NCBI GenBank assembly: GCA_005878955.1
Contig: VBMI01000078.1
Span: 1 to 14,554 of the forward strand
Length of the DNA stretch: 14,554 nucleotides
From: Methanobacteriota archaeon
Lineage (GTDB): Archaea > Thermoplasmatota > Thermoplasmata > RBG-16-68-12
Direction: 5' to 3'
Both the position numbers and the translations under genes were made by a program. The notes beneath the pieces were generated by a model, which worked only from the letters and a program-made list of their open reading frames with translations, searched no databases and was not told the DNA's origin. Below, piece by piece: positions 9,342-9,620 of this stretch (its first letter is position 1; the number at the start of each line of letters is the position of its first letter).

Positions 9342-9620
9342 ATGCCGATCACCCTGCGGTTCATCTTCATCTCCGAGGCGGACAAGCCCACGGTGACCCT
9401 GAAGATCCCGGAGGACATGCTCTTCCAGGAGGCGTTCGTCCTCGCCGCGAAGCGTCAGGGCAAGGACGCGGGGATCCTCACCGCGACGTACCCGGGCGGC
9501 TCGCCGATCGCGGGCGGGACCGTGGGCGAGGTCTCGGAGAAGTCCACGAACATCCACGTGATCGACCCGAGCATCGTCGGCGGGCTTCCCGCGCTCGATT
9601 CTGGAGCCCTCACGGTTTAA
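9342..9620 (+). CDS. Ubiquitin-fold (beta-grasp) modifier precursor, UFM1-like; internal Gly-Gly followed by an 11-aa tail
   Basis: 92 aa with host-like GC3 codons. By eye it aligns with human UFM1 recalled from memory: S-[DE]-x3-P-x3-L-x-[VI]-PE-x3-F-x6-AA, then T-x-G-x-V, then I-x-P-x2-VG (ours: SEADKPTVTLKIPEDMLFQEAFVLAA .. GTVGEV .. VIDPSIVGG). I count roughly 18 identities over about 80 positions. The GG codons are at 9579-9584, followed by the tail LPALDSGALTV. Confidence 0.7.
   Translation: MPITLRFIFISEADKPTVTLKIPEDMLFQEAFVLAAKRQGKDAGILTATYPGGSPIAGGTVGEVSEKSTNIHVIDPSIVGGLPALDSGALTV

Follow-up and report, generated by a model that had tools for sequence, protein, structure and literature searches.

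A UFM1-like modifier of a Thermoplasmata archaeon carries a C-terminal tail apparently created by loss of a stop codon and probably removed by the JAMM protease of its own gene cassette

The DNA analysed here, a stretch of 14,554 nucleotides (nt) referred to below as the window, comes from a Methanobacteriota archaeon of the GTDB class Thermoplasmata (RBG-16-68-12; assembly GCA_005878955.1, contig VBMI01000078.1, positions 1 to 14,554 of the forward strand). It contains a gene for a small ubiquitin-like protein (Ubl), followed by genes for an E2 (conjugating enzyme), an E1 (adenylating enzyme) and a JAMM metalloprotease (JAB2), and preceded by a second JAMM gene (JAB1) and a rhodanese gene. 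The Ubl reading frame continues beyond the glycine at which its conserved part ends, and the analysis concerned the origin of this extension and the enzyme that might remove it. The features of the Ubl gene and of the spacer that separates it from the E2 gene are as follows.

9342..9620, forward strand: Ubl open reading frame (ORF), 92 aa, a UFM1-like beta-grasp modifier in precursor form (from the translation, a structural model and Foldseek)
9342..9581, forward strand: conserved 80-residue core, the putative mature Ubl, ending in Val79-Gly80 (from the ends of orthologues and the ratio of nonsynonymous to synonymous substitution rates, dN/dS)
9579..9581, forward strand: GGC codon of Gly80, the predicted reactive C-terminal Gly (from conservation across orthologue clusters)
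9582..9584, forward strand: codon 81, GGG, the probable position of the ancestral stop and the second Gly of an original prediction made for this DNA (TAG or TGA in relatives)
9582..9617, forward strand: 12-codon tail GLPALDSGALTV, apparently translated Ubl–E2 spacer, predicted to be disordered (from model confidence and spacer alignment)
9596..9626, forward strand: conserved spacer element CGATTCYG..GGCCTCACGGTTTAAGCCAMC, near-invariant in eight related sequences

The translation of 9342–9620 (forward strand) ended in ..NIHVIDPSIVG80-G81-LPALDSGALTV, with the TAA stop at 9618–9620. The codon positions given in the original prediction were right, codon 80 being GGC at 9579–9581 and codon 81 GGG at 9582–9584. 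The identical 92-aa protein was found on 22 contigs (NCBI, JGI, ENA and Logan), and this form was therefore regarded as a natural allele. An assembly or sequencing error as the source of the tail was rejected on the basis of these exact copies and of the two substitutions that a change from TAG to GGG takes.

The C-termini were compared in an alignment of 66 orthologue clusters. Gly80 was present in 65 of them, the lone exception being an error-ridden, read-derived sequence, and Val79 was kept in 64. The protein stopped exactly at Gly80 in 45 clusters, whereas 21 were tailed, with R, S, Q, G, L, V, C, H, W, T or F as residue 81. The beta-grasp domain had been predicted to end in Gly-Gly, and an orthologue alignment had been proposed as a check of the invariance of this pair. 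The pair was not conserved in the alignment: Gly81 occurred in only 2 of the 21 tailed clusters, the window being one of them, and Gly80 alone was shared across orthologues. Judged from these sequences, the conserved end of the Ubl appears to be a single Val-Gly, as in mature UFM1, and not Gly-Gly. Because Gly80 is conserved and residue 81 is variable, the putative cut site was placed after Gly80, which gives a tail of 12 residues. The description of the protein as a precursor stood in so far as the ORF passes a Gly that needs exposure, but the tail had been given as 11 residues long.

In a subclade with the ending ..PSLVG, short tails were observed in all six clusters (P0022, P0025, P0052, P0053, P0055 and P0058). 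The sequences of these tails were HP, QP, RP, SRPA, RGGEV and TAARVR, and the precursor state appears to be fixed in this subclade.

The Ubl was detected in 23 of the 79 genomes of the window's order, representing 7 of its 10 genera. A stop codon directly followed the Gly80 codon in 21 of these 23 Ubl-positive species genomes, the stop being TAG in two species of the genus to which the window belongs and TGA outside it. TAG at codon 81 was found in the loci L033, L036, L020 and L025, which belong to the same genus or to close relatives. The Ubl of L033 (P0195, 80 aa) was one residue off the core of the window (79/80 identical), and its GGC-TAG was followed by DNA identical to the tail codons of the window at 33/39 positions, including the terminal ..CTC ACG GTT TAA. 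The same arrangement, a stop and then untranslated tail-like spacer, was present in L036, L020 and L025. A 1-nt deletion in L008/L012 brought the same spacer DNA into a shifted frame, resulting in the tail SLPPSIL, which ends at a TAG. Since this DNA is read in another frame in L008/L012, selection on the tail peptide was ruled out. The 12-residue tails of L006 and L007 (LVSAPDSVGLTV and VVSAPDSVGLTV) resembled that of the window only where the DNA was conserved, and the identity of the tail DNA (0.68–0.87) was near the neutral expectation.

These alignments point to codon 81 as a mutated stop and to the tail as translated Ubl–E2 spacer. The origin of the tail by stop loss, together with Gly80 as the true end of the Ubl, is considered almost certain. 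The tail had been interpreted originally as a built-in activation switch. This could not be maintained in view of the stop after Gly80 in 21 of the 23 genomes and in the 79/80-identical allele, in which the tail codons of the window correspond to untranslated spacer.

In a FastTree phylogeny of the Ubl core and E2, L006, L007 and L012 were grouped with a support of 0.98, beside the tail-less L033 (0.90). The placement of the window was supported at only 0.19, and this tree did not settle whether its stop loss was the same event as that of L006, L007 and L012. One or two stop losses seem to have occurred within the genus. Ubl forms of 80, 87 and 92 aa coexisted inside clusters of 90% identity, with many variants of the 87- and 92-aa forms, and sporadic tails of one to nine residues were observed in other orthologues. 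The distribution of these forms suggests that tails are frequent, have arisen repeatedly and are tolerated in the long term.

Within the spacer, the element at 9596–9626 hardly varied among eight sequences, irrespective of its frame or translation. The TAA of the tail is part of its TTTAAG box, about 30 nt ahead of the E2 ATG (9649). The tail DNA of the window and that of L033 were 85% identical despite a synonymous divergence (dS) of 0.40 between their E2 genes. As the block was also kept where it is untranslated, and in view of this identity, the constraint must act on DNA. An RNA structure was excluded as the cause of the conservation, the consensus fold consisting of seven pairs with no compensatory change. 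This TATA-like element may be an internal archaeal promoter, which might drive a near-leaderless E2-E1-JAMM transcript.

An AlphaFold (AF2) model of the Ubl, built from 66 orthologues, showed a beta-grasp fold with a mean predicted local distance difference test score (pLDDT) of 87. Order stopped at about residue 80; confidence collapsed past residue 81, with pLDDT below 50 at residues 82–84 and 88–91. In a Foldseek search of the PDB, the top eight matches to the model were all UFM1 (root-mean-square deviation, rmsd, 1.2–1.4 Å over 74–77 columns, about 21% identity), with template modelling scores (TM) of 0.74–0.89 normalised to the target. SUMO and ubiquitin ranked behind UFM1, with clearly worse rmsd.

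No comparable signal was obtained from the sequence. The window Ubl had no Pfam match at E≤0.01, and Ufm1 (PF03671) was the sole family to recur among its orthologues, weakly, in 7 of 66 and always below threshold (best E 0.0069). Ten more orthologues were scanned against Pfam at E≤1, and none produced a Ufm1 alignment usable for checking the register of the terminal Gly. Neither the Ubl nor its orthologues matched the ThiS family in Pfam. Searches of PDB sequences with the Ubl alone and with a 66-sequence profile returned only chance-level matches (SMT3, E 0.76; ATP synthase c subunit, E 1.1), and sequence-level homology between the Ubl and UFM1 was therefore not demonstrable. The profile matched only 11 of 1.84 billion representative proteins, all of them close relatives or fragments, and no eukaryotic UFM1 was among them. 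Set against the UFM1 family, the Ubl has the beta-grasp fold, the Val-Gly end and partners of the UBA5/UFC1 type, but not the sequence score.

A separate observation concerns P0221, a protein of 962 aa in which four separate stretches matched the Ubl profile (profile positions 18–63, E 8e-5). P0221 may be built of repeats with Ubl-like segments, or the match may be noise.

The genes that follow the Ubl in the cassette are listed below.

9649..10152, forward strand: UFC1-like E2, 167 aa, starting with the ATG at 9649 (from Pfam UFC1 and PDB UFC1)
10149..10910, forward strand: UBA5-like adenylating enzyme (E1), 253 aa (from a PDB UBA5 match)
10907..11857, forward strand: JAB2, cassette JAMM/MPN+ protease, 316 aa (from the invariant JAMM motif and co-occurrence with the Ubl)

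The E2 scored 31.3 bits against Pfam UFC1 (PF08694; cut-off 25) and matched UFC1 chains in the PDB at 6e-5, with the Cys of its RIC motif opposite the KIC Cys of human UFC1. The E2 proteins of relatives are also 167 aa long and share the motif LGLR[IL]CDMH. The E1 was closer to UBA5 (8.5e-48 in the PDB) than to MoeB (4e-33), and one of its Cys residues was aligned with that of the UBA5 stretch GVCAASLPTTM. In JAB2, residues E29, H87-S-H89, S102 and D105 were invariant among 33 orthologues. The JAB2 model (pLDDT 87.6) matched Rpn11, the Caldiarchaeum Rpn11 homologue and CSN5 in its N-terminal half (PDB/Foldseek), and a scan of the 33 orthologues assigned no Pfam family to its C-terminal domain of about 190 aa.

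The genes overlap at GTGA (E2 stop and E1 start) and at ATGA (E1 and JAB2), and JAB2 is translationally coupled to the E1. Ubl, E2 and E1 were adjacent in every locus examined, and the order Ubl, UFC1-like E2, ThiF-type E1 and JAMM was found in every longer locus compared from other genomes. JAB2 was present in 22 of the 79 genomes of the order. All 22 were among the 23 with the Ubl; the 56 genomes without the Ubl lacked JAB2 as well. In the one Ubl-positive genome without JAB2 the Ubl lies about 1.4 kb from a contig end, which leaves too little room for E2, E1 and JAB2.

The cassette was distributed unevenly. None of the 38 genomes of the sister genus in the family of the window had it or the Ubl, and two of five other genomes of the window's genus lacked it. 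The Ubl was not found in any of 400 other genomes sampled from the phylum, and the names of its relatives in the databases placed them in Thermoplasmata. Such a patchy occurrence points to recurrent loss or to lateral movement. In a survey published in 2023, UBA5 had prokaryotic homologues but UFM1 and UFC1 were seen in eukaryotes alone (PMC10183829), and literature searches returned no description of an archaeal UFM1-like system.

The data are best accounted for by a tail that arose through stop loss and is removed by the JAMM of the cassette, leaving Val79-Gly80 as the functional end of the Ubl; the probability of this reading as a whole is estimated at roughly 0.6. The stop after Gly80, TAG in the closest relatives and TGA in other genera, would have been lost by its change to GGG, with translation running on for 12 codons into the Ubl–E2 spacer up to the TAA in the TATA-like element. 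The resulting tail, GLPALDSGALTV, is predicted to be unstructured and unconstrained as a peptide, and would have to be removed before the UBA5-like E1 could adenylate Gly80 and the Ubl could then be handed to the UFC1-like E2. JAB2, rather likely the enzyme responsible, would cut the Gly80-Gly81 peptide bond in the manner of isopeptide bonds, as the Caldiarchaeum Rpn11 homologue does with its own ubiquitin. Most orthologues need no maturation, so that the conserved role of JAB2 is most likely deconjugation; trimming of the tail would be a by-product that made the stop loss harmless. Cleavage, its site and the enzyme are all inferred.

Several lines of evidence agree with this proposal. The dN/dS ratio of the Ubl core was 0.04–0.26 overall and 0.08–0.26 between tail-bearing lineages, and that of E2 among tail-bearing lineages was 0.19–0.34. 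As core and E2 remain under purifying selection in tail-bearers, the system is still in use and the tail is probably removed. Tolerance of tails would also be expected if a peptidase specific for the terminal Gly of the Ubl is always present. In cells without both UFSPs, precursor UFM1 fails to rescue and the mature form rescues (PMC10952357). CsRpn11, encoded in the ubiquitin operon of Caldiarchaeum, cuts the nine-residue tail of the 87-aa CsUb precursor and cuts conjugates too, while the SAMP-type CsJAMM of that organism leaves the ubiquitin precursor uncut (PMC6043591).

Other observations weigh against removal of the tail by JAB2. Most orthologues require no processing, and JAB2 is thus not maintained for trimming; that it can cleave a linear peptide bond is an assumption. 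The dN/dS of E2, compared for the window, L006, L007 and L008 against L033 and L036, was somewhat higher in tail-bearers (0.19–0.34) than in comparisons including a tail-less lineage (0.14–0.18), which could reflect slight relaxation or a short-branch effect. Moreover, the tailed genomes among the 23 species genomes all belong to the genus in which JAB1 stands beside the cassette, and JAB1 is retained as a minor candidate for the trimming enzyme there. The upstream genes are the following.

8462..8938, forward strand: JAB1, a small Mec+/JAMM1-type JAMM of 158 aa, outside the conserved Ubl cassette (Prok-JAB, 9e-21)
8925..9278, forward strand: stand-alone rhodanese (Pfam Rhodanese, 6e-24)

Matches of JAB1 in the PDB were 2kcq and PfJAMM1. 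JAB1 was present in 55 of the 79 genomes of the order, including 46 of 52 in three Ubl-less genera and none of 15 in four Ubl-bearing genera. Over 115 aa the rhodanese shared 51% identity with the C-terminal domain of a ThiS-ThiF-rhodanese fusion (L038:5076-6533); in L033 and L036 no rhodanese separates JAB1 from the Ubl. Ubl-less genomes (L038:1276-6533; L039:2155-6617) carried SufS, NifU, a PALP protein (CysM-like, dependent on pyridoxal phosphate), JAB1 and the ThiS-ThiF-rhodanese fusion, a series that we take to be the layout of the CysO/CysM/Mec+/MoeZ cysteine pathway. The window lacks both the PALP gene and the ThiS-ThiF part at this site (8462–9278), where the rhodanese is succeeded by the UFM1-like cassette; this genome has its ThiS-like and other ThiF genes elsewhere. 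JAB1 and the rhodanese appear to be what is left of a CysO/CysM/Mec+/MoeZ-type module, and the site seems to be a rearrangement hot spot. A sulfur relay through the upstream rhodanese was excluded as a conserved feature, this neighbourhood being limited to one genus and belonging to a separate module.

From gene content, the two flanking JAMMs appear to represent two separate systems that abut in the genus of the window. Both had been proposed to serve the processing of the Ubl. A JAMM is indeed the obvious trimming enzyme, with a precedent in Caldiarchaeum, but only the downstream JAB2 tracks the Ubl, and the two cannot be treated as equivalent when JAB1 occurs mostly in Ubl-less genomes within a CysM/ThiS-ThiF-rhodanese module. 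Of the original interpretation there remain an allele that is formally a precursor and a JAMM as its likely protease; the Gly-Gly end, the switch and the joint role of two JAMMs were given up.

The tail might also simply be kept, the stop-loss allele being neutral or mildly damaging, with a Ubl that cannot be activated or acts only non-covalently and a cassette that is decaying in this lineage. The simple stop loss and the lack of conservation of the peptide agree with this, as do the many relatives that have lost the cassette (present in 0/38 sister-genus genomes, missing from 2/5 other genomes of the same genus) and the slightly higher dN/dS of E2 among tail-bearers. However, the core, E2, E1 and JAB2 are all intact, and the core dN/dS between tail-bearing lineages is 0.08–0.16 at a dS of about 0.2–0.3. 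The abundance of the allele on 22 contigs and the existence of an entire separate subclade with short tails also speak against decay, which makes a retained tail unlikely, though worth keeping in mind. Trimming by JAB1, possibly after the chance Gly-Gly of this allele, was considered since Mec+-type enzymes cut after the GG of ThiS-like carriers. JAB1 stands beside the cassette in every Ubl-positive genome of the window's genus, to which long tails among the species genomes are confined, and it has a full JAMM motif and a likeness to the promiscuous PfJAMM1. Its occurrence is nevertheless uncoupled from the Ubl (46/52 genomes of Ubl-less genera, 0/15 in the four Ubl genera), its native context is the CysM/ThiS-ThiF-rhodanese module, and the sister tails start with L, V or S and not with G. 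Given that the SAMP-type JAMM of Caldiarchaeum also spares the ubiquitin precursor (PMC6043591), such a role for JAB1 was judged quite improbable.

A Ubl acting mainly as a sulfur carrier, thiocarboxylated via SufS and the rhodanese, with the JAMM and the tail mirroring QbsE/QbsD or CysO/Mec+, would fit the SufS, JAMM and rhodanese genes directly upstream in the window. In the QbsE/QbsD pair a JAMM removes the residues after the GG of a ThiS-like carrier. Yet this upstream neighbourhood occurs in one genus only, and even L033 and L036 lack the rhodanese; the separate ThiS-ThiF-rhodanese module accounts for JAB1 and the rhodanese, the Ubl is conserved together with a UFC1-like E2 and with a UBA5-like E1 that has no rhodanese, and the fold matches UFM1 and not ThiS/MoaD. 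The Ubl did not resemble ThiS/MoaD/SAMP sulfur carriers in any of the points compared (no ThiS match, a single-Gly end, a UBA5-like E1 and the presence of an E2), and this function is very improbable. Hardly any weight was left for the original form of the proposal, in which a conserved Gly-Gly precursor with an 11-residue tail serves as a designed activation switch operated by two flanking JAMMs. Gly-Gly and 11 further codons are present in the window allele, and Ubl precursors of such a type exist; but the GG is unconserved, the tail is absent in most orthologues including the 79/80-identical one, and its DNA serves as spacer in relatives and is translated in two different frames.

With stop loss and trimming by the cassette JAMM as the preferred explanation, the locus was compared with known systems. 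Mature UFM1 ends in ..Arg-Val-Gly83, which is unusual among Ubls in being without a di-Gly. The archaeal Ubl is like eukaryotic UFM1 in its fold, which is nearest to UFM1, in the single C-terminal Gly after Val, and in its UBA5-like E1 and UFC1-like E2. It differs in giving no significant sequence match and in carrying a tail in some alleles only. Human UBA5 has C-terminal segments that bind UFM1 and UFC1; the archaeal E1, with its 253 aa, is probably too short for them. A short extension blocks the reactive Gly in the UFM1 precursor as well, where a Ser84-Cys85 dipeptide is removed to expose the terminal Gly and conjugation fails unless this processing takes place (PMC10952357). Unlike UFM1 with its UFSP1 and UFSP2, the cassette contains no UFSP-type cysteine protease but an MPN+/JAMM metalloprotease.

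The operon of Caldiarchaeum subterraneum is a further archaeal arrangement of a Ubl, E2, E1 and MPN+ protease, with a tail of 9 residues against 12 in the window, and CsRpn11 is among the nearest solved relatives of JAB2. The CsUb precursor of 87 aa is cut after Gly-Gly78 (PMC6043591). That system differs in its ubiquitin-like Ubl with a di-Gly end and in its ubiquitin-type E1 and E2, whereas in the window cassette the tail is a stop-loss run-on absent from most orthologues and JAB2 has the extra C-terminal domain of about 190 aa. Compared with a precursor of the CsUb/CsRpn11 type, the ORF likewise passes the reactive Gly and a JAMM with an intact E/HxH/S/D motif is encoded alongside it, but a conserved precursor with a Gly-Gly site was not found. 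The CysO/CysM/Mec+/MoeZ system is similar in that a JAMM acts on a beta-grasp C-terminus, and JAB1 and the rhodanese of the window seem to come from such a module. The module differs in having a ThiS-like GG carrier fused to ThiF-rhodanese, in lacking an E2 and in occurring mainly in Ubl-less genomes.

A C-terminal extension of a Ubl is in itself ordinary, and the UFM1-like setting is the more interesting part. The single Val-Gly end removes an apparent difference from UFM1 and strengthens the case for a UFM1/UFC1/UBA5-type cascade in one archaeal order. It is nonetheless doubtful at this stage whether the cassette represents a true archaeal equivalent of the UFM1 pathway, with an active MPN+/JAMM in the role of the UFM1 peptidase. 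If this were so, the dead MPN near UFSP2 (ODR4; the MPN of C. elegans UfSP) could be a JAMM relic. C. elegans UfSP is an MPN domain fused to a UFM1 protease. It was also the structure (5xda) that gave JAB2 its top query-normalised TM-scores, which at 0.39–0.40 (about 350 columns, rmsd about 13 Å) amount to no more than a lead. ODR4, the partner of human UFSP2, is an MPN pseudoenzyme according to PMC10952357. The active archaeal JAMM and the dead eukaryotic MPN could be linked, but this is unproven.

Near-identical alleles that are tail-less or have a tail of 7 or 12 residues, formed from one and the same spacer DNA, present tail evolution in progress. Given a pre-existing peptidase with specificity for the terminal Gly, loss of a stop can generate Ubl precursors, and the tailed and untailed alleles form a natural substrate pair for the cassette JAMM. 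The division of the two JAMMs between a UFM1-like cassette and a CysO/Mec+-type sulfur module changes the enzyme of interest.

An additional gene was observed next to the cassette. In several genera a convergent gene for a double-zinc-ribbon (DZR) protein of about 130–140 aa lies just downstream of JAB2 (window 11840–12235, reverse strand; L003:8465-8887; L004:9287-9667; L033:3311-3736; L036:5498-5899). Its 3′ end overlaps the 3′ end of the JAMM gene in the window, L003, L033, L034 and L036. A role as partner, substrate or E3-like factor is conceivable for the DZR protein.

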